Assembly: GCA_963748815.1 (NCBI GenBank)
Contig: CAVVKJ010000009.1
Location: 64,001 to 128,000 of the forward strand
Direction of reading: 5' to 3'
Source of the DNA: an uncultured Gemmatimonadales bacterium
Lineage (GTDB): Bacteria; Gemmatimonadota; Gemmatimonadetes; Gemmatimonadales; GWC2-71-9
Length of the DNA: 64,000 nucleotides
Positions 23,154 to 38,669 of this stretch are shown here, one piece after another; position 1 is the first letter of the stretch, and every line of letters starts with the position of its first letter. The position numbers and the translations under genes were made by a program. The notes beneath the pieces were generated by a model. The model made no database searches and was not told where the DNA came from. It saw only the letters and a list, made by a program, of their open reading frames with translations.

Positions 23154-24294
23154 ATGCAGTGGTCGTTCCGTATCGGACGGGTCGGCGGCACCGACATCAA
23201 GGTCCACATCACCTTCCTCGCGCTGGTCGCGTGGTGGGGATACTCGGCCTACGCCGACGGTGGGCGGACGGCCGCGGTCCAGGCGGTCGTCTTTCTCCTC
23301 GCGCCTCTTCGCCTGCGTGCTGCTCCACGAATTCGGCCACATCCTGATGGCGCGCCACTACGGCGTCCGGACCCCCGACGTCATCCTCCTCCCCATCGGC
23401 GGCCTGGCACGCCTCGAGCGGATGCCGGAGGAGCCGCGACAGGAGCTGCTGATCGCCGCGGCGGGCCCCGCCGTGACACTCGTCATCGCGCTGACGCTCT
23501 TCGGTGCGCTGCAACTGACCGGGGCGCCCCTCGATTCCGAGCAGCTCGACCCGACGCGTTCCGGCCTCCTGCAGCAGATCATGTGGATCAACGTGGCCCT
23601 CCTCCTCTTCAACCTCCTCCCGATCTTCCCGATGGACGGCGGCCGGATGCTCCGTGCGCTCCTCGCCATGCGCATGGGCCTGCAGCGGGCCACGCGTCTG
23701 GCCGCCCGCGTGGGGCAGCTCGGCGCCATTGGGCTGGGGCTCTGGGGGCTGGGGTTCTTCTCGCGCTGGGGGTACGGCCCGAACATCGTGCTCGTGCTGA
23801 TCGCGGTGTTCATCTATCTCGCCGCCGGGGCCGAGGGGGCCGCGGTGGAGACCAGGACGGCGGGACGTGGCCTGACGGTGCGGGAACTGATGATCACGCA
23901 GTTCGTCGCCCTGCCGATCTACGCCACCCTGCAGCAGGCGGTGGACGCCCTTCTCGCCGGGGAACAGAGCGAATTCCCGATCATGGACAACTGGGGAAAG
24001 GTGGAGGGAATCCTGACCCGCGACGGACTCATCCGGGGACTCTCCCAACTGGGCGTCGGCGCCACCGTCGAACGGGCCATGAGCACCGGCTTCGCGTCGG
24101 TCCCCGTCGAGCTCCCCTTCGAGGCGGCGATCGAACGGCTGGTCCAGAGCGGGCTGCCGGCGCTCCCCGTCGTCGACGACCGCGGGGCGCTGGTGGGTCT
24201 CCTGACGGGGGACAACGTGAAGGACGTGCTGCTGGTGCGGCAGGCGGGGGTGCAGTTTCCGGCCCGTGCGCATCATCCGCCCCGTCTCGAATGA
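23154..24294 (+). CDS. site-2 (M50) protease with CBS pair (one extra base near 23304)
   Basis: HEFGH, LLPIGG, AAAGP and NLLPIFPMDGGR, then two CBS domains; the N-terminus is in another frame. Confidence 0.88.
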
Positions 24295-24763: not shown

Positions 24764-25468
24764 CTAATACCCAGCCCGATCGGCATCACGGAGAAGTGGG
24801 CCAATAATTGTGTCAAATGCCCGCCGCTGGTCTCCCTTGAGAAGCCGCTGCATGAGGCGCAGTTCGGCGATCCCTGCCTGGTACCAGAGCGGCGCGTCCA
24901 CCTGAGCACCGAGGCGCCTCCAGGTCGTGAGTTGCCCTCCGACTGCTTCGAGGGTCGCACCCGTGAGGCACGCTTGGCGCAGGAGGGATTCTTGTTGATC
25001 CGAGGTAAGCTCGGCGCTCAGGGCTGCCAAGATCTCGGTCCGGCGCTCGTCCTGCGTCGGGTAGTCGAAGGCCCATAGAATCAAGTCTGCCGGCCCGCCA
25101 AGCCTCCGATATATCTCAGCTGCGGACATCGCGACCCACGCACCGAACTCCAGGGGATCGGTAATCATTGCCGCGAGAGTATTCGCCAAGGCCAGGGAAT
25201 CTGCCTGCCACACGCTATCAAGCTGCTGCCACGACGGTCCGCGGGCCGGATCCTCCCTGAGTATCAACGGCTCGAACATCTTCACGATCGTCGAATCGGC
25301 CTCCAGACGGACTCCCGGAGCGATGTCCTCCCTTGTGCGCGCCGGTAGCACCGCGACACATTGGCTGACGACGGACTGGGCTGCGGCCGCGCCGGGCAGA
25401 CCAGACCACAGCAACAGGAGGAAACGCAGGCGGAAGTGGCGTCGTGGCAAGAGGGTCTCTCCGGTCAT
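24764..25468 (-). CDS. putative immunity protein 2 (signal peptide), partner of the orphan Rhs toxin
   Basis: TGATG overlap with the orphan toxin stop; signal ending AAAA-Q; clearly homologous to 26415..27167. Confidence 0.7.
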   Translation of the reverse strand: MTGETLLPRRHFRLRFLLLLWSGLPGAAAAQSVVSQCVAVLPARTREDIAPGVRLEADSTIVKMFEPLILREDPARGPSWQQLDSVWQADSLALANTLAAMITDPLEFGAWVAMSAAEIYRRLGGPADLILWAFDYPTQDERRTEILAALSAELTSDQQESLLRQACLTGATLEAVGGQLTTWRRLGAQVDAPLWYQAGIAELRLMQRLLKGDQRRAFDTIIGPLLRDADRAGY

Positions 25469-26359
25469 CAACAATGGAGCGACGGCCCGCGGACCAGTTG
25501 ATTCGCGGCTTGGTAAGTCGCGCAGTGATAGGTAGAAGTGCCATCATATGCCGAAAGGCTATGCAGTTGTTCATGGATGGCGTAGTTGGCCAAGTATCGC
25601 CCCAACCGGGGCGCGAAGAACCGGCCGGCGTGGATCGCGGTCGGAGCACCGAAGTTGTCGCTGTCATACGGCGTGGCGGCAACTGGAAATTCGCCTGGTT
25701 TGGTCATGGTCGAGTTCACATACTTGCTGTTCTCAAACACGAGGCCACCCAGTAGACGCTTAAGAAAGCCTCCCATCGCTTGCCCCGGCGACACATGGAG
25801 TCCATTGGGAAGGGTCACCGATGGGCTCGCCCAGTTCATGCCGGTAAGGACTGCCTCGAACAGCCCCCCAGACTGGCCGAATTTCAGCGGAGACGCCCCG
25901 CCACACACCACGCCGAATACCCCGCCCCCGGCCAAAACGCCCCCCCCCCCGACAGAACCCCGCGACACGCCCCACCCACAGGTCGCACACTGCGCCCGAG
26001 GCACGCGCCCATTCCATCGGCGCCGCCGCCCCCCGCTGCCCATAGCTCGCCCCGCCGGTGAGTGGACGGAGCTCCCCGCCCCCACCGAAGCAGATATCCA
26101 CGCCCAGGCACAAGTCGTCCCAGCTGAGATATGCCCAGGTCGCATCCTTGACCAGCCCATCCGGATCCCGGGCCTGGAGCACGTCGCCGTTGATATAGGC
26201 ATAGACGTTTCCGCCCCCCGCATAGCCGATGCGGTCCTCCTGCACAAACCGCCCCACCGTGGGGTCAAAGTACCGGCTCCGGTGGAAGTAGAAGCCGGTC
26301 TCGGCGTCCCATTCCCGCCCGGTCCAGCGATACCGGGGCGGGGGCTGGGGACCGGCGCT
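25468..26359 (-). pseudogene. orphan Rhs core plus C-terminal HExxH toxin cassette (no start at the core's 5' edge, frameshift at or near the C11 run 25940-25950)
   Basis: SAGPQPPPRYRWTGREWDAETGFYFHRSRYFDP...DPDGL is preceded by an in-frame TGA; the tip ends ...IHEQLH...HCATYQAANQL. Confidence 0.8.
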
Positions 26360-26360
26360 G
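26034..26360. repeat. 327-bp direct repeat, copy 2 (Rhs core end plus post-cleavage segment)
   Basis: Colinear with 27702-28028 with no indels; the differences I checked are largely synonymous. Confidence 0.9.
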
Positions 26361-26414
26361 CGTCAGCATCGACCGGACCGGTCGGTGCCGTCCGTCGTTG
26401 GAGGCCCCAGAACC

Positions 26415-27167
26415 TCACCGGCTTGGGGGTGCTAGCCATTTCACAAGTGCTTCTTCGGCCCGGCCCAGAGTTGGTCCGAGAATGCGATCGAACTGCACGA
26501 GCAACTCCCCCGAGAGGAGGCCCCTCATCAACTCCAACTCCTGAATCCCACTATCATACCAGCTTGGCAACCCAGCTCGACCGTCAAGTGATTTGAGCGA
26601 ACCGAGGTGGGGAGTCAAGGCGTCCACACCTATCGCCGTCCGACAGGCTACCCGGAACACCAGAACCTGTTCGAAACTCGACAGTGAATCTGGAAGCGCG
26701 ATGAGGATGTTGTAGTTGCGTGTCTCCGACTGGGGCACATCGAGGCTTGCAAGAAGCCACGTCGATGGGCCTCCGCGCCAATGGTATTCCGTCGCAGCGC
26801 CAAGGGCAGCATCGTGCGAATACTCAGATGGAGTCACAACGATCGCAGCAAGAGTGCGGACAAAGCCCTCGGGATCTGCCTTCCATGCGCTGTCGAGAAC
26901 AAGTCTCCGGCTTCTGGCGGTGGCGCTGATTGGCTCGTCGATGACTGTTGACGAAAAGATTGGCAGCACTAGGGGAAGTAACTGACGATCCGGCCATGGA
27001 TAGCGCGATGACGCGCTGTCGGATGTGCCCGCCTTGGCTATCACCTTTTTGCAATCGCATGCCATCGACTGAGCGAACGCCGCCTGTGGCCCGATGAATA
27101 TGGCGAACGTCACTGCCAAGGCCCGCGCCTCGCGCGCCCAGCCAATTCGGGCGCGTCCGACGATCAC
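26415..27167 (-). CDS. putative immunity protein 1 (signal peptide), cognate to the full-length Rhs
   Basis: GTGA overlap with the Rhs stop; hydrophobic signal ending AFA-Q; lower GC than the flanks. Confidence 0.72.
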   Translation of the reverse strand: MIVGRARIGWAREARALAVTFAIFIGPQAAFAQSMACDCKKVIAKAGTSDSASSRYPWPDRQLLPLVLPIFSSTVIDEPISATARSRRLVLDSAWKADPEGFVRTLAAIVVTPSEYSHDAALGAATEYHWRGGPSTWLLASLDVPQSETRNYNILIALPDSLSSFEQVLVFRVACRTAIGVDALTPHLGSLKSLDGRAGLPSWYDSGIQELELMRGLLSGELLVQFDRILGPTLGRAEEALVKWLAPPSR

Positions 27168-30100
27168 GGTATGCATGGGAGATAGTGGTCGGTTAGGTAA
27201 TTGGCGGTTGCGTAAACAGCGCAATGCCCAGCTTCGGTCGCAGAAGCGCCCGGGAAGAGGAAATGCAATTCTTCATGTACGAATGTGTTCGCCAGATCGT
27301 CCCGGTTTGTCCGCGCGAACACGAGGCGCTCATCCACTATCGTAACACCGAACACGGTCACCGCTCTCGTATCTGGTGAGCGGCCGCCTCCGTGGACATA
27401 CCGCGCGTTCTGGAAGATGCTGCCGCCGACCAGGCGCGCAATGAATGAGCCGACTACCGTTGACCCGAACAGGTCGCCGAATAGCAAGCTGGAGCGAGTG
27501 TTACGAGTTACCGCGTCGAGGGCTCGGTAGAAGTTCCCTCGCCCCAATGCACTCGCGCCCTCAAACATCGCTGACACTTCGGGTAGAGTCCCAGGACCGC
27601 CTATAGATTGGGCCAGCGCGGCGTAGTTTTGCTTGTACTGTTCATACATGTCGAACTTGAAACTCGACTGGGCCCCCCACTCGATGAGCGCATTGGCCAT
27701 GCGCTGCCCATAGCTGGCCCCGCCGGTCAGGGGACGGAGCTCCCCGCCCCCACCGAAGCAAATATCCACGCCCATGCACAAGTCATCCCAGCTGAGGTAC
27801 GCCCAGGTCGCGTCCTTCGTCAGCCCATCCGGATCCCGGGCCTGGAGCACATCGCCGTCGATATAGGCATAGACGTTTCCGCCCCCCGCATAGCCGATGC
27901 GGTCCTCCTGCACGAACCGCCCCACCCCCGGATCATAGTACCGGCTTCGGTGGAAGTAGAACCCCGTCTCGGCGTCCCACTCCCGCCCGGTCCAGCGGTA
28001 GCGGAGCGGGGGCTGCGGGCCGGCGCTGTCGATCAGGTTGCCGTAGGGGTCGTAGCGCAGGCTCCCGACCCACGCCCCGTCGCCTCGCCGCACCAGGGCC
28101 CGCACACTCCCCAGCGGGTCCAGCACCACCCGGTAGGTGGTGTCGCGCACCGTCACGCCCAGCAGGTTGTCCACGCCGGGACCCCAGGTGTAGATCGTCG
28201 TGAGGCCGGTATTCGCCGAGTCGGTCTCGAAGGCTACTTGGCCCCCGGCATAGACCATCCGGAGGTACCCCACCGTGCCGCCAGTGGCGCCGCTGTACAC
28301 CCGCTTGACGATCCGGCGGCCGGTCACGTCATACCCGTAGCGGGCGATCAGCACCCCGTTCTGCCGCACCCAGATGAGGCGCTCCAGCGCATCATACCCG
28401 TAGGTCCACCCCGGCACCACCTTCTGGAGGAGGTTGCCGGCATGGTCATAGTTGAGGAAGCCTCCGGACTTCCGCAGCTGGTTGGTCGTGGCGTTGAAGA
28501 GCTCGCCGCCCTGCACAAACAGGTTGTCCATCCGGTCAAAACTGTAGCTCCGGCTCACCAGGGAGTCGGGACTCCCCGCCGCCCGCGCGGCCGAGGAGCG
28601 CTGCCACCACCCGATCACCCGCTGCCAGCCGTCGTAGACCACCGAGTCCCGCAGGCTGTCGGGCGTGGCCACGGCACCCGCCTGCCGGCTCCAGAAGGGC
28701 TTGAGCATTGGGCCCAGGGAGTCCACCGCGTCCTCCCGGTCGAGCGCGAGGGCCGCCCACGTCGGGCTGCTGAACACATTCACCTGGTAGCTGGCCGCCG
28801 TGAGCGCCCCGCTCAGGTTCCAGCCCCGGCTCTCCAGGTGAATCGGCGTGCCCGCCGGCCCCCGGGTCGTGAGGCTCTGGCTCCGGCCCAGCTCGTCCAG
28901 CACCAGCGCCAGCGAGTCGCCCAGCGGCGTGAGCAGGGTGTCGGGGATGCCGCGGGCCGTCTCGTAGCGGGTCTGCCAGGTGCCGACCGCGTCGGTCCGG
29001 GTGGTCGGACGCTCCCAGGGATCATAGGTGTAAGTCTGGATGCGGGGTACCGTGCCGCTCCAGGCGGTGTCGGCCACCAGGCGCCCCCGCTGGTCGTAGC
29101 CCCAGCGGAGTTCGCCATTGATCCCGCCGATCGAGTCCACCGGATTCTCCAGCCACTGCCGCGTGCGCTGGTCCGCCGGGCCCTGGTAGGCCTTCCGCAT
29201 CGTGCCCACCGTGGGAATCACCGCCAGGGTGTCCCGGTTTCGGCTGTCATAGTGGGTCGTGATGACGTACCCCCGCCGGGTGATGGTCTTGACGACGTTG
29301 CCAGCTAGATCGTAAACGAGCGAGTCCTTCACGGTCGCACTGTCGGCCCACGGCCGCCGACTCACCACCCGGCCCAGCCGGTCCAGCCGGTAGGTGGTGG
29401 CCTTGCCCCGGGGGTCCACCCGGGCCGTGTCCCGCCCCGCGCGGTCCCGCCGGTACCCCACCGCCTGCCGGTGCAGGGAGTCGAAGCTCGCCGGCCACGA
29501 ATAACAGGGCGCCGTGCAGTTGTCGCCCCGGAACAGCACCGTCGAGTCCACCTCGTTCGCCACCGTGTACCAGGTGCGGACCTTCCGCCACTGGATCCGG
29601 GTGGCCCCGAGGCTGTCGGCGACCCGGAGCGAGCTCTCGGTCGTCGTGTCCCGCCCCTGGGCATCGTACTTCGTCCGCGACCGGAGCTGGTTGTAGGGGC
29701 CCGTCACCTCGCTTGGGTTCTGCCAGGTGCCATCATACGCGTACCGCACCGCCCCCGCTCCCGAGCGCCGGGTCGAGTCCACCCGCCCGTCGGCCCGATA
29801 CCACACGAAGCTGGAGTCGTCGGCGGGCCCCACCGTACGGATCGGGTTGCCCACCGCATCATAGGTGATCGCGGTGCTATTGTCCCGAGGATCCACCTGC
29901 CGGATGACCCGGAAGTTGGCGTTGTAGACCAGGCTGTCGAGCCGCAGCGTGTCGCTCGCCGCGCGGACCCAGAAGGTCTTCACCACCTGGCGGAGGCTGT
30001 CATACTGGGTCCAGACCCGGCTCGAGTCGGCCACCTTCCCTTCCGTCCAGACCACCCGCCCGTCCATGTGGAAGCTGGCCTGTGCGAGGAGCCCGAGCGC

Positions 30101-32144
30101 ATCCCAGGTCCGGGTCGCCTGCCCCCAGCGATTGACCAGCGAGCGGGTCCAGAAGCCGCGCGGGTCGGTCATCTGGACGTAGGCGCTGTCCAGCGCCCGG
30201 AGCGCCCCGAGGCCCTGGTACTCCCGCGCCGTGTACCCGATGGTGGGCGTCTGCCAGCTGCCGCTCGAGTCCTGCACGCTGGGAAGCTGCACCTGCACGG
30301 GGCGGAAGCCGAAGGCCGGGTCATACGCCACCACGGTCGTGTCCGCGAGCACGCCGATGCGGCGCTGGAGCACCAGGGTCTTGCTTAGCGCCCCGTAGAC
30401 CGCATAGACATAGCTCGTCGTGTAGGGCGCTCCCGTTGGCGAAGGGATCGAGTCCCGGGTGAGTTGGTTGGTGGGGCCGTCAATCGTCACCTTGGTCTGT
30501 CGGAGCGAGCCGCCCGTCAAGCTGGCCAGATGCGTGAGCGTCCCACCGGCGGTGTAACCGAAGCTGATCTCCTTCCCGACCGGATCCTTCACCTTGAGAA
30601 TCTTGTCGCTCGACCCCTCCCACAGCACCGAGTCGCGCTGGCCATTGACGTCCTGGGTGTACAGCAGGCGCCCCGTCGTCGCCTCGTATACGCTGCGGGC
30701 GAGACTGCCCCGAGGGGAAAGCTCGAGCTGGGCGCCGACCTTCTGCAGCACCACCTCGCTCCCCGGCGGCGCCAGGAAAAGGCTGTCCCCATTCCCCCGG
30801 AACACGCTCACCGCGCCGGTGGCCGAGACCAGCAGCCGGTCGTTCCCCGCCGGCACCAGCAGCACCCCCGCCGTCGGCCACCACCCCGATCCGTACCGCG
30901 TGGCCCGCCGGTCCACCAGCACCACCTCCACCGAATCGCTCGAGCTCCGGGTCGTGCCCCCGGACGTGACCCGGCCCTCCACCCGGAGCCACTTCCGGGT
31001 CGGGGTCGGAAACGTGCTCCCCATGAAGTCACCTTGCAGCACCGCCCGGCACCGCCGCACCGAGCCGGTGAGGCAGGTCGGGCTCGCGAACCGCACCGAG
31101 TCGAGCACCGTGGTCCCGTCCTGCAGCACAAAGGTGAGGTCGTCCGGCGTCCCGGCCGGCCAGGTGAGCTCCAGGTCCACCGGCACCAGCACCCGGGGAT
31201 ACGACTGCCGCGTCGAATAGACCAGCCCCGTGCTCCGCGGCACGCCGCGCGACACGTACGGTACCGTGCTCACCCCCGCCTCGATTTCTCCGGCGGTGAC
31301 CGCGAGCCCGGGGCCGAAGGGCGAGCTGAAGGCCCGCCCCAGCGCTTCGGACGGCACGCCGCTGAAACCCAGGATCGGCTGCTCATCGCTCGGGAGCACG
31401 ACCCACGGGGTCACGGTGGTGCAGCCCCCGTTGAGTGCGCAGACCCGGAGGCTCAACGCCGCCGAATCCGCCGCGCCCGAGCCCACCGTCCCCAGCCCCT
31501 GGCTCGAATCCGGTTCCCACTCCAGGAGCCCCCGATTCACCCGGGCCTGCCGCGTCACGTCCACCCCCCGCCAGGTGAGTCGCACCGTCGTCGAGTCGAT
31601 CGCCTGCCCGGGGTCCAGTCCGCCGCGCACCCACTGCGCCGACACCCGGGGCTGCCGCGTGCGCACCACCGCCCGGTTCGGCCCCGTGGCAATCGGTGCC
31701 ACCAGCGTGATCACCGGGTTCGCGAGCAAGGTCACCGCCAGCGTATCCGCCGCCGGGCCACCCGTCTTCCCCGTGGCGGTCAGGATCACCTCACCCGCAC
31801 CACTGGTGCCGGTCGCGTAGGTCACATCCACTTCCCGGCTCTGCCCCGGGGTCAGGCTGCTCTGAAAGCTGGGTGTCACGCTCACGCAGGCCACCGCCCC
31901 CGTCGCTGAGCACGCCATGCCGATGTTGATGATGGTGGTGGTGCCGGTGTTCCGCACCAGGAAGGTCCCGACCACCGCACCCTGCCCCGCCGGCTCGGTG
32001 ACGGCGTCAGGGTCGGCGGTGACGGTGAGCTCGGCGATCAGGCCGCGGGCGACAATTTCCGGGGGGGGGGGGGGGGGTATCAGGCGCACCGATCCCCACG
32101 ACGAGGGACACACCGACGACGGGGAGCCAGACGAGACGGGGCAT
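27164..32144 (-). CDS. RHS/YD-repeat polymorphic toxin with N-terminal signal peptide and Ig-like region and C-terminal HExxH domain (start out of frame by +1 at the G17 tract)
   Basis: YD repeats, core YDPYG...YRWTGREWDAETGFY...RYYDP..GRF and DPDGL cleavage motif, then HEELH; GGAGG-ATG at 32144 encodes MPRLVWLPVVGVSLVVGIGA. Confidence 0.9.
27702..28028. repeat. 327-bp direct repeat, copy 1
   Basis: Matches 26034-26360. Confidence 0.9.
32061..32077. repeat. G17 homopolymer inside the Rhs 5' coding region
   Basis: 17 consecutive G; G16 would join the ATG at 32144 to the Rhs body. Confidence 0.85.
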
Positions 32145-32278
32145 GCGGCCTCCGAGGGAAGAGGCTGACGGCGCGAGCGGCGGGGGACGAGGGAGGAACG
32201 CCGCGGCTCGCGCGCCATGTGCCAGTATGGGGAGTGGGATGGAGCCCGTCAAGCAGGTGCGGGCGAAGCTGGCGTCAG

Positions 32279-32689
32279 CTACGCCACCGGAAACTCCGCC
32301 AGGAACGCGGGCGCCCCATCCCGCGGCCTGATGTAGTACCACCAGTTGTCCTCGGGGCTCCACCCCTCCTCGTCCGCCACGATGTTCCCCCAGAGACAGC
32401 GCGCCACCGGCAGGGTGGCCTCGCGGACCCGCTGGTCGAGCTCGGCCAGACGGGCGGCACACGCCGCCGCCTGCTCGCGGGTCACCCGTTCAAGCGCCTG
32501 GGCGAGCAACTGGCGCCCATCGAGGTCGCCGAGAAAATCCTCGTAGTCACCGCTGTACCCCGCCTCGATGGACCCGACCGTCCGCTCCCACCCGGTCAGC
32601 AGCACCTCGAGCCCTCCGTGTACCACCGCGTCCGGCGCCCCCTCCTCGCGAAGGAACTGTTCGAGATTGCCGCCGTCCCGGCCCGTCAC
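32279..32689 (-). CDS. hypothetical acidic protein (136 aa)
   Basis: GTGA overlap with the M1 peptidase stop; GYSGDYEDFLGDLDGR...NWWYYIRP. Confidence 0.7.
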   Translation of the reverse strand: MTGRDGGNLEQFLREEGAPDAVVHGGLEVLLTGWERTVGSIEAGYSGDYEDFLGDLDGRQLLAQALERVTREQAAACAARLAELDQRVREATLPVARCLWGNIVADEEGWSPEDNWWYYIRPRDGAPAFLAEFPVA

Positions 32690-34583
32690 CGCGGGTACCG
32701 GTTGTTGGCGCGGTCCACGTCGGGGAGCGCGCGCCGGGGGTCGAGCTCCGCGCGCTGGATGGCCGGCTTGCCCCGCACGCGATAGGTGAACCGCGGCCCG
32801 AGATTCCACATCTCGATCGGCAGCGTGACGACGTCGGTCGTGCCGTCCACGAAGGTGAGCCGCAGCTCCGCCGGCATGATCATCGTACCGAGGCTGGCGA
32901 GCCGGACCTCGGTGACGCCGGCGCTGTCCACGGCGATTCCTTCCACCGCCTGGTCGAGCCGGGTGGTGGTCAGGACCCACTCCCGCCAGAACCAGTCGAG
33001 GTCCATGCCCGAGGCGTCGCGCATCAGGCGGAAGAAGTCGGCGGGCGACGGGTGCCGGAACGTCCAGGCCGCCAGGTACTGGCGGAAGGCGGCGTCGAAG
33101 CGCGCCGGCCCCAGCACCTCGTAGCGCAGCAGCTGCAGCATCAGCGCCGGCTTCTGGTACCCCGCCCAGAAGAGATCGTGGACCTCCACCGGCCGGAGGC
33201 CGAGCGGCTGTTCGTTGACCCCGGCGTGATCGGGGTAGAGATGGAGCGGGTGCACCTCGATCGAATCGCCGTAGGCGGTGCCCTTGAAGTACCGCGCCGC
33301 GTTGGCCAGGTCGATGAAGGTGTTGAAGCCCTCGTCCATCCAGGGATAGAGCCGTTCGTTGGAGCCGACGACCATCGGCACCCACTGGTGGCCGAGTTCG
33401 TGGGCCAGCACCCAGTGCACGTCCTCGCGGGTCGGGCCGGTCGGGTCGAAGGTGATCATCGGGTATTCCATCCCCTCGATCGGCCCTTCGATGCTGGTGA
33501 ACTGCGGGTAGGGGTAGCGGAGCCACTGCCGGCTGAAGTAGGCCAGCGCCTCGTTCGTGATCTTGTTCGCCTCGGCCCAGAGCGTGGCCGAGGGGCGATA
33601 GAGGGTGTGGATCATCACGCCCTCCCACGCGCTCGCATCCCACTGGAAATCGGGGCTCGCGGCAAAGGCGAAGTCGCGCACGCTGTCGGCGCTGAACCGC
33701 CAGGTCACGGTGCCGGTGCTCGTCGGGCGGGTCCGGCTCGGGGTGCCGGCTTCGCTCTTCGTGATGACGGCCACGGGATCGGTCGAGGTCGCCGCCTTCG
33801 CCAGGCGGGTGCGCTGGGGGCCGGTCAGCACCTCCTGCGCGTTCTGGAGCGTGCCGGTCGCGGCCACGATGTAGTCGGCGGGCACGGTCAGCGCGACGTC
33901 GAACCGGCCGTACTCGAGGTAGAACTCGCCGGCGCCGATGTAGGGATCGTGGTTCCAGCCGCGGAGGTCGTCGTACACCGCCAGGCGCGGGTACCACTGC
34001 GCCACCTCGTAGAGGGTGCCGTCGTGGCCCATCCGGCCGCCGCCGAAGGCGGGCACCTTGAACCGCCAGCGGATGACGATCTCCAGGCTGGTGCCGGCGG
34101 CCAGCGGCGTCGGCAGGTCGAGCCGCATCGTGGTGCCGTACACCACCGGGGTGACCGGCCGGCCCGCCACCAGCACCGTGTCGAGGACGAACCCGCCCGC
34201 GAAAGCCCTGGCAGGAGAAGTCGAAGGTCGAACCGAGGAAGACGAGCGGCGGCTGGTCGAGCTGGGAGGTCACGCTCCCCTCGGCGCACATGTTCTGCTC
34301 GAGGTGCATCCAGAGGTAGGGAAGCGCGTCGGGGGAGCGGTTGTGGTAGGTGATGACTTCGCGGCCGCGGAGCTCATTCGCCGCCGGGTCGAGAGTGGCC
34401 TCGATCCGGTAGTCCACGCCCTGCTGCCAGTAGGCATGCCCCGGCCGGCCGCTTGCGGCCCGGTATTCGTTCGGGACCCGGCAGGTCGAGGGGGCGGAAG
34501 GGGGAGAGTTGCCACCCCTGCGCCGCGAGGCCGGAGGCGGTCAGGAGAGAAAGCAGCAGGGCTCTGGCGAGATGGCGCGTCAC
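32686..34583 (-). CDS. secreted M1-family aminopeptidase (two +1 indels near 34474 and 34203)
   Basis: Signal peptide, GRPGHAYWQQ-VDYRI, GMEYP and HELGH...WMDEGFNTF. Confidence 0.9.
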
Positions 34584-34691
34584 GTGGTATCTCCCAGCGT
34601 GGGTTTCGACGTAACATACGGTGCCGCGGCCCCGTGAGAAAGCGCCATGCCCTCGTGGGCACTCCCATCCTAGTCAAGGAGATCTCCGTTC

Positions 34692-35519
34692 ATGCGCCAT
34701 GCCCCCCTTCTGCTGCTCGGCCTCCTCGCCGCTGCCTGCGCCAAGGATGCTCCACCCGTCGACACTTCGGCCGCACCGCAGCAGGTGACCATCACGGCCA
34801 CGGACTTCGCCTACAGCCTGCCACCGACGACAATCCACGCCGGGCTGACGACCGTCACCCTCGTCAACCAGGGCGCTGAGATCCACCACGTCACCCTCGT
34901 GCGGCTGACCGACGGGAAGACAGTGGAGGACCTCATGACCGCACTGCAGTCCGAGGGTCCCCCGCCTGCTTGGAGTATCGCCATGGGTGGGCCCAACGCC
35001 GCGCCCCCCGGCGGGGAGGCCAACGCGACACTCGTCCTCGATCCGGGGACCTATGCCCTCGTCTGCTTCATCCCGTCGCCCGACGGGGTGCCGCACATGG
35101 CCAAGGGGATGGTCATGGGGCTCGAGGTGCAGCCCGGCACGGGGGAAGTCGCTGCCCTTCCCCCGGGCGATATCGAGATGGTCCTGGCGGAGTACAGCAT
35201 TGCCCTCTCCCAGACACCGACGGCCGGCACGCATACGGTACGGGTCGTCAACCGGGGCGCCGAGGCCCATGAGGTTGCCCTCGTGCGCCTCGCACCCGGT
35301 GCGACGATCGAACAGTTCCTCGGCTGGATGGCGGGCGGCGAGCAGGGGCCGCCCCCAGCGGAGGCGGTCGGAGGCCTGTCGGGCTTTGCCCCGGGGCAGA
35401 CACAAAACTTCACCGCCAATTTCTCCCCGGGCACCTACGGGCTGCTCTGTTTCATCCCCGCCCCGGACGGCGCGCCGCACTTCGTCCACGGGATGGTCGC
35501 CACCTTCACCGTCTCATAG
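34692..35519 (+). CDS. lipoprotein with two cupredoxin-like repeats
   Basis: Lipobox LAAAC; two copies of NxGxExH...YxLxCFIP..DGxPHxxxGM. Confidence 0.7.
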   Translation: MRHAPLLLLGLLAAACAKDAPPVDTSAAPQQVTITATDFAYSLPPTTIHAGLTTVTLVNQGAEIHHVTLVRLTDGKTVEDLMTALQSEGPPPAWSIAMGGPNAAPPGGEANATLVLDPGTYALVCFIPSPDGVPHMAKGMVMGLEVQPGTGEVAALPPGDIEMVLAEYSIALSQTPTAGTHTVRVVNRGAEAHEVALVRLAPGATIEQFLGWMAGGEQGPPPAEAVGGLSGFAPGQTQNFTANFSPGTYGLLCFIPAPDGAPHFVHGMVATFTVS

Positions 35520-35529
35520 CGGAGCCCCC

Positions 35530-36375
35530 TTGTCCATTCGAACCTGCGCCATGCTCCCGGCGGCCGTGCTCGCGCTCGCCTGCGCCAGGGAACCTGCCCC
35601 GGACAGTGACGTAGCCTCCACGGCCGCTCCGCAGGAGGTCACGATCATTGCCACGGAGTACGGCTATCAGTTGCCGGCCGCACCGGTCCACGCAGGACTC
35701 ACGACCATCACACTCGTGAACGACGGCCAGGAGCTGCACCACATGCAGCTGGTGCGGCTGACCGACGGCAAGACCGTGGCCGATCTCGCCGAGGCGCTGG
35801 GTGCCCACGCTGCGCTCCCAGCGTGGGTGGTCCTGGAAGGCGGCCCGAACGGCGCGCAGCCCGGAAGCTCCGTGAACGCCACCCTCGTGCTCGAGCCGGG
35901 GCAATACGCGATGTACTGTCGCATCCCCGCCCCCGATGGCGCCGCCCATTTGACCAAAGGGATGATCCTGGGGATGCGGGTCGAACCGGCGACGGGGGCG
36001 GTCGCCGCCATGCCCACGGGTGACATCCAGATCGGGCTCTTCAACTACGGATTTTCACTGTCGGCGGCACCGACAGCGGGAACGCATGCGTTCGCGGTGA
36101 CCAACAACGCCGACCAGCCGCATGAGATCGCGATCGTCCCGCTTGGGTCGGGCGAGACGATGCAACCGTGGATCGACTGGGTGTCGGGGGGCTACGCGGG
36201 ACCGCCCCCCGGCATGACCACCGGGGGACTCACCGACATCCGGCCGGGCCAGGTGCAGAATTTTTCCGCCACTCTCGCCCCGGGACGCTACGGCCTCATC
36301 TGCTTCGTCCGTGATGCGACCGACGGCAAGTCGCATGTGCTCCACGGGATGACCACCACCTTCACCGTGTCGTAG
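35530..36375 (+). CDS. tandem paralogous lipoprotein with two cupredoxin-like repeats
   Basis: GGAG then TTG start; lipobox LALAC; same His and Cys-His-Met pattern as the upstream paralog. Confidence 0.7.
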   Translation: MSIRTCAMLPAAVLALACAREPAPDSDVASTAAPQEVTIIATEYGYQLPAAPVHAGLTTITLVNDGQELHHMQLVRLTDGKTVADLAEALGAHAALPAWVVLEGGPNGAQPGSSVNATLVLEPGQYAMYCRIPAPDGAAHLTKGMILGMRVEPATGAVAAMPTGDIQIGLFNYGFSLSAAPTAGTHAFAVTNNADQPHEIAIVPLGSGETMQPWIDWVSGGYAGPPPGMTTGGLTDIRPGQVQNFSATLAPGRYGLICFVRDATDGKSHVLHGMTTTFTVS

Positions 36376-37340: not shown

Positions 37341-38034
37341 ATGTCCCCTGCCCCCGCCGTCGTCCTCCTCAGCGGAGGCCTCGACTCCGCCACGACGCTG
37401 GCCATCGCCCGCGCGGAGGGGTTCGCCTGCCACGCGCTGAGCGTTCGCTACGGGCAGCGCCACGCGATTGAGCTCGCCAGCGCCACCGCCGTGGCCCACC
37501 ACCTCGGCGCCGCCTCCCATCGGGTCATCGAGATCGACCTCCGCGCATTCGGCGGCTCCGCCCTGACCGCCGACATCCCCGTCCCGAAAGACCGCGACGA
37601 CGGCGCCCGCGACGAGCGGCATCCCGATCACCTACGTCCCGGCCCGCAACACGATCTTTCTCTCCTACGCCCTCGGCTGCGCCGAGGTGCTGGGCGCCGC
37701 CGACATCTTCCTCGGCGTGAACGCGGTGGACTACAGCGGCTATCCCGATTGCCGGCCGGAGTTCGTGCAGGCGTTCGAGCAGCTGGCCAACCTCGCCACC
37801 CGGGCCGGCGTCGAGGGACGCCGGATGACGATCCACGCGCCGCTGCTCGCCATGCGCAAGAGCGAGATCATCGCGCGCGGCCTCGCCCTGGGCGTCGATT
37901 TCGGAATGACGCTGAGCTGCTACGATCCCGCGCCGGATGGCGCCGCCTGCGGCCGCTGCGACGCCTGTCACCTCCGGCTCGAAGGATTCCGCGGGCTCGG
38001 ACGCGCCGATCCCGCCCGGTACCAGTCGCCATGA
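37341..38034 (+). CDS. queC: 7-cyano-7-deazaguanine synthase (one extra C near 37607)
   Basis: [29 protein letters not shown] and SCY...CGRCDAC. Confidence 0.93.
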
Positions 38035-38669
38035 GCTACGCGGTCAAGGAAATCTTCTACACCCTGCAGGGCGAGGGCGCCCACGCGGGACGCCCGGCGG
38101 TCTTCTGCCGGTTCGCCGGCTGCAATCTCTGGAGCGGCCGCGAAGCCGATCGCGCCGACGCCACCTGCGATTTCTGCGACACGGATTTCGTGGGAATCGA
38201 CGGGCCGGGGGGCGGGCGTTTCGCGACCGCCGTCGAGCTGGCCGCGGCGGTGAAGGCGGCGTGGCCGGCGGCGGCCGGCGGCGGGGTGCCCTACGTGGTC
38301 TGCACCGGAGGAGAGCCCCTGCTGCAGCTCGACGCGGCCGCGGTGGACGCCCTGCACGCCGCGGGATTCGAAGTGGCGGTGGAAACCAACGGCACGCAAC
38401 CCGCGCCGCCGAACATCGACTGGATCTGCGTGAGCCCCAAGGCCCGGGCCGCGGTGCGCCTGCGGCGCGGCGACGAACTGAAGCTGGTGTACCCGCAGCG
38501 CACGGCACTCCCCGAGGACTTCGACGGCCTGGAGTTCACCCACCGGTTCCTGCAACCGATGGACGGCCCTATGCTCCGCGAGAATACGGCCGCGGCCGCC
38601 GCGTACTGCCTGGCGCATCCCCGCTGGCGGTTGAGCCTGCAGACGCACAAGCTCATCGGCCTTCCCTGA
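38031..38669 (+). CDS. queE: 7-carboxy-7-deazaguanine synthase, compact CX14CX2C radical-SAM type
   Basis: [19 protein letters not shown]...CDFCDT, TGGEP, ETNG and SLQTHK. Confidence 0.95.

Follow-up and report, generated by a model that had tools for sequence, protein, structure and literature searches.

The minus-strand Rhs locus in the window analysed here, a stretch of 64,000 nucleotides from an uncultured Gemmatimonadales bacterium (G000:C9:64001-128000; source assembly G000 of 3.16 Mb, 86% complete), probably encodes a polymorphic toxin of the Rhs type that is exported via Sec and bears a zinc peptidase tip acting on the envelope, together with a periplasmic immunity protein, where toxicity, substrate and binding are what we infer from the sequences and the predicted structures. 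Genes for an M50/CBS peptidase and for an M1 aminopeptidase flank the locus, and its 3' part (25001-28000) has a guanine-plus-cytosine content of 62-63% versus approximately 69% in the surroundings. A sequence-only reading had described (coordinates as located here) an Rhs gene running to DPDGL (27821, minus strand), a tip of 218 amino acids (aa) with LANTFVHEELH (27277) and HCAVYATAN, a second tip with LANYAIHEQLH (25575) and HCATYQAAN, and a translationally coupled signal-peptide gene behind each of them. All of these elements were recovered: the start of partner 1 overlaps the stop of tip 1 (GTGA, 27167), the start of partner 2 overlaps the stop of tip 2 (TGATG, 25468), and the two pairs represent, as had been proposed, diverged alleles of one tip/partner family (tips: 35% identity over 95 aa, E 3e-11; partners: 33% identity over 214 aa, E 9e-31).

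In tip 1, the HEELH motif occupies residues 182-186, with H199 as candidate third zinc ligand and two cysteines, C200 and C216. Among 16 aligned tips, HExxH and G133 are invariant, while C216 is present in 15 and C200, as read from the alignment, in 14; the HEELH form itself occurs in 5 of the 16 rows, tip 1 having HEELH and tip 2 HEQLH. According to the structural model of tip 1 (predicted local distance difference test, pLDDT, of 81), the first 35 residues are disordered and followed by a compact domain, in which the HExxH motif is located on a helix (residues 173-188). The best structural match was BlaR1 (Z 6.9, root mean square deviation (rmsd) 3.9, 111 aligned residues), followed by AsaP1 (Z 6.7, rmsd 3.6, 120 aligned), deuterolysin (Z 6.5, rmsd 3.7, 118 aligned), Wss1 (Z 5.6, rmsd 3.9, 101 aligned) and YbeY (best Z 5.5, rmsd 4.1, 108 aligned). 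With HExxH in all 16 tips and zincins as the top structural matches, the zincin-like character proposed by the sequence-only reading is upheld, and the tip is predicted to be a small zincin. Only 11 matches at E<=0.001 were obtained among 1.84 billion representatives, and a five-row tip profile found 3 of the 401 genomes of the order; the tip family is therefore small. The tip profile gave one match among longer proteins and none among 127 candidates in a scan of assembled genome contigs; tip 1 had no match in PHROGs, and Foldseek returned nothing for the tip model in BFVD at E<=0.001. In the ESM Atlas, the tip was nearest to unnamed clusters (0.94), and the nearest named families (M35, M85, M26) are to be taken as leads only.

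The tip might simply belong, as a divergent member, to one of the named families Tox-MPTase1 and Tox-MPTase5, given that Tox-MPTase5 is defined by HEELH on signal-peptide-exported Rhs proteins and that the Tox-MPTases are described as Wss1-like (PMC3482391), and given the HEELH motif and the Wss1 match of tip 1. This identity is regarded as highly improbable: none of the 16 tips matched any Tox-MPTase model at E<=0.5, PF15641 (Tox-MPTase5) was unmatched at the tips of G000 and of five relatives in direct searches even at E<=10, and HEELH is restricted to the minority of rows given above. Direct searches with PF15638-PF15640 (Tox-MPTase2, 3 and 4) and with PF14891 (Peptidase M91/Tox-HopH1) likewise revealed no match at the tips, and none of the 16 tips matched M91 or other toxin models.

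All 19 aligned partners begin with an N-terminal hydrophobic stretch (peak 1.7-2.7), which by eye mostly ends in an AxA-Q-like site, and two cysteine residues are invariant among them. The model of partner 1 is all-helical (pLDDT 88.5); its best VIA structural matches were HEAT/importin solenoids with Z up to 10.1, a value under the VIA bar for helical folds, and therefore no fold was assigned. Foldseek found no PDB structure for the partner model at E<=0.001, the best PDB sequence match had an E of 1.2, the best ESM Atlas cluster (0.86) is unnamed, and none of the 19 partners matched an Imm model at E<=0.5 or belonged to a Pfam or NCBIfam family. The comparisons of tips and partners by Foldseek and with the Pfam Tox and Imm families, which the sequence-only reading had proposed, thus ended without a named family, and its remark that it recognised neither family agrees with the libraries searched (Pfam, NCBIfam, PDB). 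In a single-sequence search of 5.8 billion proteins, partner 1 had no match among 6137 candidates, and the A4 profile gave 4. Within the order, the partner family had matches in 14 of 401 genomes, three of which were judged spurious (the weak matches in G372, G285 and G330 were discarded on inspection); for the phylum, the count was 10 of 401, with every match inside the family of the window (9/166 vs 0/234); the source names of tip and partner homologs are “Gemmatimonadales” or “Gemmatimonadota bacterium”. The partner appears to be an exported protein and likely the periplasmic antidote of the tip.

Partner genes also occur outside of tip/partner pairs. A third, stand-alone partner gene is present in G000 (C5:457215-457883, L059), with counterparts in G001 and G008 and a further stand-alone copy in G009 (other loci of this group: L075, L076, L078). 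Clusters on both strands comprise five partner genes in G090 (L069:8600-13850) and three in G417 (L070:6650-10550); the G090 cluster contains in addition two HExxH tip remnants without a trunk. Stand-alone copies and clusters of partners fit the expectation of acquired immunity, and the G090 and G417 clusters resemble the polyimmunity loci described in PMC3482391.

The coupling of tip and partner extends to the relatives: among 30 Rhs cores, nine bear a tip of this family, and a gene of the partner family followed each of them, but was never found behind the 21 other tips, five of which exhibit other in-frame HExxH motifs and other partners. The least biased cases are L061, the sole metagenome locus that was found from the tip alone and also contains the partner (E 5e-39), and a “CALHE[YF]AH” subtype in G163 and G378 that was absent from the profile training set. 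Over nine pairs, the identities of tips and partners co-vary (Spearman 0.45; 478/20000 permutations), with partner identities between pairs of 14-42%. A complex prediction for tip 1 (residues 37-218), zinc and partner 1 (residues 31-250) returned “no answer” with a score of 0.00 and counts neither way. Eleven further Rhs tips of relatives (L029, L030, L032, L034, L073, L077) had no Pfam match at E<=0.05; several are of other HExxH or HExxE types, and others carry motifs that seem JAB-like or lysozyme-like. Behind many of these tips lies a gene whose start resembles a signal peptide, which suggests envelope-directed arsenals.

The trunk matched PF05593 (E 1.8e-10), TIGR03696 (E 6.3e-19) and, weakly and in its Ig-like N-terminal region, DUF7507 in the Pfam and NCBIfam scans, which revealed no PAAR domain in it; its PDB sequence matches were Rhs/Tc cores only, none of them named teneurin. 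Of 61 genomes, 16 (G000 among them) had a match to the trunk, with identities of 69-71% in G006 and G009, and the intact homolog P0018 (1661 aa, 63% identical over the body) carries a tip of the same family. The trunks of relatives bear many unrelated tips at the same position, so that the polymorphic Rhs locus of the sequence-only reading is supported by YD/RHS repeats, Rhs core and variable tips on a conserved trunk. Assembled X4 contigs, one each, diverge from the window at 27830 (just after DPDGL) and at 27715 (end of the shared repeat); these are the two swap points of tip exchange. The first approximately 40 residues after DPDGL (27702-27820) are common to tip 1, tip 2 and P0007 and recur in G013 at the start of a HExxH tip that is otherwise unrelated (L032:6304-6924), and this shared segment gives the second swap point inside the tip.

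Export is indicated by the frame that opens with the ATG at 32144 and encodes a signal-peptide-like leader before its stop after 45 codons at 32009; hydrophobic leaders are found in frame at the equivalent place in the relatives G006, G009 and G013 and in the intact P0018. A scan for promoter candidates found three sites versus a mean of 0.5 in shuffled sequences, and, by eye, a TTGAC hexamer likewise stands upstream of the leader of G006, at two loci of G009 and in G013. VipB, a type VI secretion system (T6SS) sheath component, was detected neither in G000 (0/1; 86% complete) nor in relatives (0/5). G000 contains one secretin and a weak match to SprA_N, a family of the type IX translocon (G000:C5:347949-348743, 25.4 bits, E 5.4e-6), neither of which is tied to the Rhs gene.

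Generally, the shell of an Rhs protein encloses the tip, and the core cleaves itself after a DPxGL motif and thereby releases it. Applied to this locus, the leader, which is seen, would direct the carrier of approximately 1660 aa through Sec; the shell would enclose the tip, and the core would cleave after the DPDGL motif that is present, as expected from Rhs proteins in general. The freed zincin may then cut a periplasmic or surface substrate of a neighbouring cell, activity, target and site being putative. The exported, helical and presumably disulfide-bonded partner would bind and block the tip, a putative binding to which the observed genetic coupling points, and the downstream core-repeat cassette may serve as a silent spare tip plus antidote that could be swapped in by recombination, the repeat being seen here and switching being seen among relatives.

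Several findings weigh against this interpretation. The evidence covers anatomy, conservation, polymorphism and coupling, from which toxicity, cleavage, and zinc and protein binding are predicted, and a route across the outer membrane was not identified for the Rhs carrier. Concerning the tip, the candidate third ligand H199 is present in only 11 of the 16 sequences and thus not invariant; Foldseek returned no PDB structure for the tip model at E<=0.001; and every fold match stayed below Z 8, which therefore supports a zincin-like arrangement and no family. A peptidase is not proven, because YbeY endoribonucleases reach Z 5.1-5.5. Indeed, YbeY chains come within about 1.5 of the top match, and together with the variable third ligand this would suit a toxin that is a non-peptidase hydrolase of zincin fold (YbeY-like nuclease, or an enzyme hydrolysing peptidoglycan or lipid) and that may act in the cytoplasm, uptake being blocked by the partner. 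Such a hydrolase is considered quite unlikely, since the top four structural matches are peptidases and since an exported partner with cysteines, along with the conservation of cysteines in the tip, speaks against a cytoplasmic site.

Concerning the coupling, the co-occurrence table is biased: many of its loci were fetched via the partner, six of the nine positive tips belong to the profile training set or hardly differ from its members, and two arrays of G163 are near-duplicates. The co-variation shows co-inheritance and not binding, because kin share cassettes. Furthermore, the stand-alone partner gene of G000 is 74-82% identical to the copies at the same, syntenic site in G001 and G008, both without an Rhs core match; this conservation in three species could reflect a role without a toxin. 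The latter would agree with a tip that is a non-toxic secreted or surface peptidase (for feeding, adhesion or kin signalling) and a partner that acts as a periplasmic folding chaperone or transit inhibitor; both proteins seem to be exported, and social roles of RHS/YD proteins are mentioned in PMC13018210. We nevertheless regard a non-toxic function as unlikely in view of the many unrelated tips at the same trunk position, each with its own downstream gene, of the accumulation of partners in clusters with only tip remnants (G090) and of the fast divergence of the pairs. The polymorphic toxin with its own antidote is retained as the preferred interpretation.

The second cassette deviates from the sequence-only reading, which had presented the system as complete. 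Tip 2 is no gene of its own and belongs to an orphan cassette without a start codon, whose repeat of the Rhs core and tip start (26360-26034) is identical to 28028-27702 in 298 of 327 positions (91%), and its HExxH half shifts frame after an 11-base run (25940-25950). The stretch 26034-25860 is unusual in composition: none of 105,164 sampled windows of 120 nucleotides was as A-poor and G-rich, and in comparison with the intact relative P0007, changes to G alone account for 19 of the 30 codons that differ, but downstream for just 5 of 41. A diversity-generating retroelement as origin of the A-poor stretch was rejected, as a protein-level search revealed no third copy in the genome and G replaces A, C and T.

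The Rhs gene, too, is not the single frame of approximately 1660 codons that had been described: the length from ATG to stop is not divisible by three, and a run of 17 G (G17, 32061-32077) marks the break. Given the breaks in both frames and the orphan state of the second cassette, the system cannot be called complete, and as assembled neither toxin frame is intact, a further point to be held against a functional toxin. G17 and the 11-base run are the two longest homopolymers of the genome, G17 being its sole run of at least 12 bases, and their location at the frame breaks would fit a slippage switch. The flanking M50/CBS (23154-24294) and M1 (32686-34604) genes are themselves frameshifted against their G009 orthologs, with one and two frame changes, respectively, which is a sign of indel errors in the assembly. 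In an X4 contig of approximately 90% identity, indels at the G17 site keep the leader in frame; the assembled contigs of X1 and X2 include fragments identical to tip 1 and partner 1, none of which spans G17, and contigs of the RNA library X10 cover 26996-27303 and 27396-27902 and are not read as transcription. Because neighbouring housekeeping genes are frameshifted too and relatives are intact, assembly error is the likeliest cause, and, judged by these sequence comparisons, both breaks are rather likely artefacts. Fixed decay is less probable by a wide distance, and phase variation is an unlikely cause.

It is nonetheless possible, if distinctly less probable than an artefact, that the breaks are real in this copy (not in the family), which would then be a pseudogene keeping its immunity genes or be subject to a slipped-strand switch at G17. 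The coincidence of the two longest homopolymers with the frame breaks of one locus speaks for this, as do the nonsense codons of G009: both of its long Rhs genes, L008 (C46) and L029 (C4), have one in-frame TAG each, which also counts against intact toxins, and the G011 copy reads Gln where the C46 gene has TAG; real decay therefore occurs in the genus. On the other side stand the frame changes in the flanking M50 and M1 peptidase genes, the position of the orphan break within the G-biased stretch and the finding that no long C run is present in the leader among the relatives examined. The features of the locus are compiled in Table 1.

Table 1. Features of the Rhs locus in the window (coordinates of the forward strand).
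Feature	Coordinates	Strand	Remarks
Sigma-70-like promoter candidate	32224..32252	-	TTGACG-17-CATACT; predicted from sequence
Likely true Rhs gene start	32078..32144	-	ATG, GGAGG upstream, hydrophobic Sec-type leader
G17 run (coding strand C17)	32061..32077		Frame change between leader and Rhs body
Rhs trunk	27821..32062	-	N-terminal Ig-like region, YD/RHS repeats, Rhs core to DPDGL
Tip 1	27164..27820	-	218 aa; predicted small zincin
Partner 1	26415..27167	-	250 aa from GTG (alternative ATG 27176); signal peptide; predicted immunity protein
Orphan cassette	26034..26360	-	327-bp repeat of Rhs core plus first approximately 40 tip codons; without start codon
Tip 2, A-poor and G-rich stretch	25860..26034	-	Frameshift at 11-base run; likely low-quality consensus
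Tip 2, HExxH half (HEQLH)	25468..25941	-	Frame differs from that of its core repeat
Partner 2	24764..25468	-	234 aa with signal peptide; partner 1 paralog

Outside of the locus, two paralogous genes lie in tandem at 34692-36375; their products are lipoprotein-like, have a high content of His, Met and Cys and seem to resemble copper-binding cupredoxins. At 37341-38669, what is presumably a queC-like gene seems, by eye, to be split across frames and to run into a frame that we assume to be queE-like.

The class to which the locus is assigned is known from the Tox-MPTases, from Rhs-M91 of Salmonella and from VgrG2b/PA0261 of Pseudomonas; the tip and partner families are unnamed, as judged against the models of Tox-MPTase2-5, Tox-MPTase1 being without an identified model. 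The sequence-only reading also implied more novelty than is warranted: a catalogue of 2012 (Zhang et al., PMC3482391) already contains HExxH zincins as tips of Rhs proteins, and a periplasmic Rhs-M91 precedent exists (PMC13556075). The likeness to Tox-MPTase1-5 comprises a small Wss1-like HExxH zincin at the end of an Rhs protein and export by a signal peptide, with HEELH in Tox-MPTase5 (PMC3482391); in contrast, the tips described here are unmatched by the Pfam models of Tox-MPTase2-5 and are accompanied by a dedicated exported partner family, whereas PMC3482391 gives no immunity family for the Tox-MPTases and does not count Gemmatimonadetes within their range. The PAAR-Rhs-M91 protein SED_RS06335 of Salmonella Dublin is toxic only in the periplasm and rescued by SED_RS06340 (PMC13556075). 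By analogy, the present locus would share an Rhs protein with HExxH tip and an envelope-located immunity protein, toxicity being shown there and predicted here; it differs by a Sec-type leader and by the missing VipB and M91 matches from the PAAR/T6SS delivery and membrane-anchored immunity of the Salmonella system. For VgrG2b and PA0261, periplasmic toxicity and a disulfide-dependent antidote were reported (PMC6899460), a combination of periplasmic zinc peptidase toxin and exported, cysteine-containing immunity protein that the locus resembles in its predicted activity; VgrG2b is a VgrG and not an Rhs fusion, has a Z of 4.0 to the tip model, and no sequence match to it was found. Bacterial teneurin-like proteins combine a Sec-targeted RHS/YD shell, a polymorphic tip and a downstream immunity gene without obvious delivery machine (PMC13018210), from which the trunk described here differs by matching Rhs/Tc cores only in the PDB, by sequence. 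In the literature searched, which left out most subscription journals, neither a description of the tip/partner pair nor a study of competition in Gemmatimonadales by Rhs arrays that are Sec-exported and T6SS-independent was found.

The known logic of polymorphic toxin systems is unchanged by the locus. The most far-reaching reading, in which G17 would be a real ON/OFF switch for the export of a T6SS-independent Rhs toxin, the partner a novel inhibitor of small zincins, all-helical and of broad range, that serves non-producers as stand-alone armour, and the whole part of an envelope-aimed arsenal of the Gemmatimonadales, is very unlikely to be right. Should several diverged zincins be inhibited by the partner, the latter would represent a new protease-inhibitor scaffold. 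The locus adds an unnamed putative toxin family and a defined exported, predicted immunity family for small Wss1-like zincin tips, and it suggests that the Gemmatimonadales may compete by means of Rhs arrays that are exported via Sec and independent of a T6SS.

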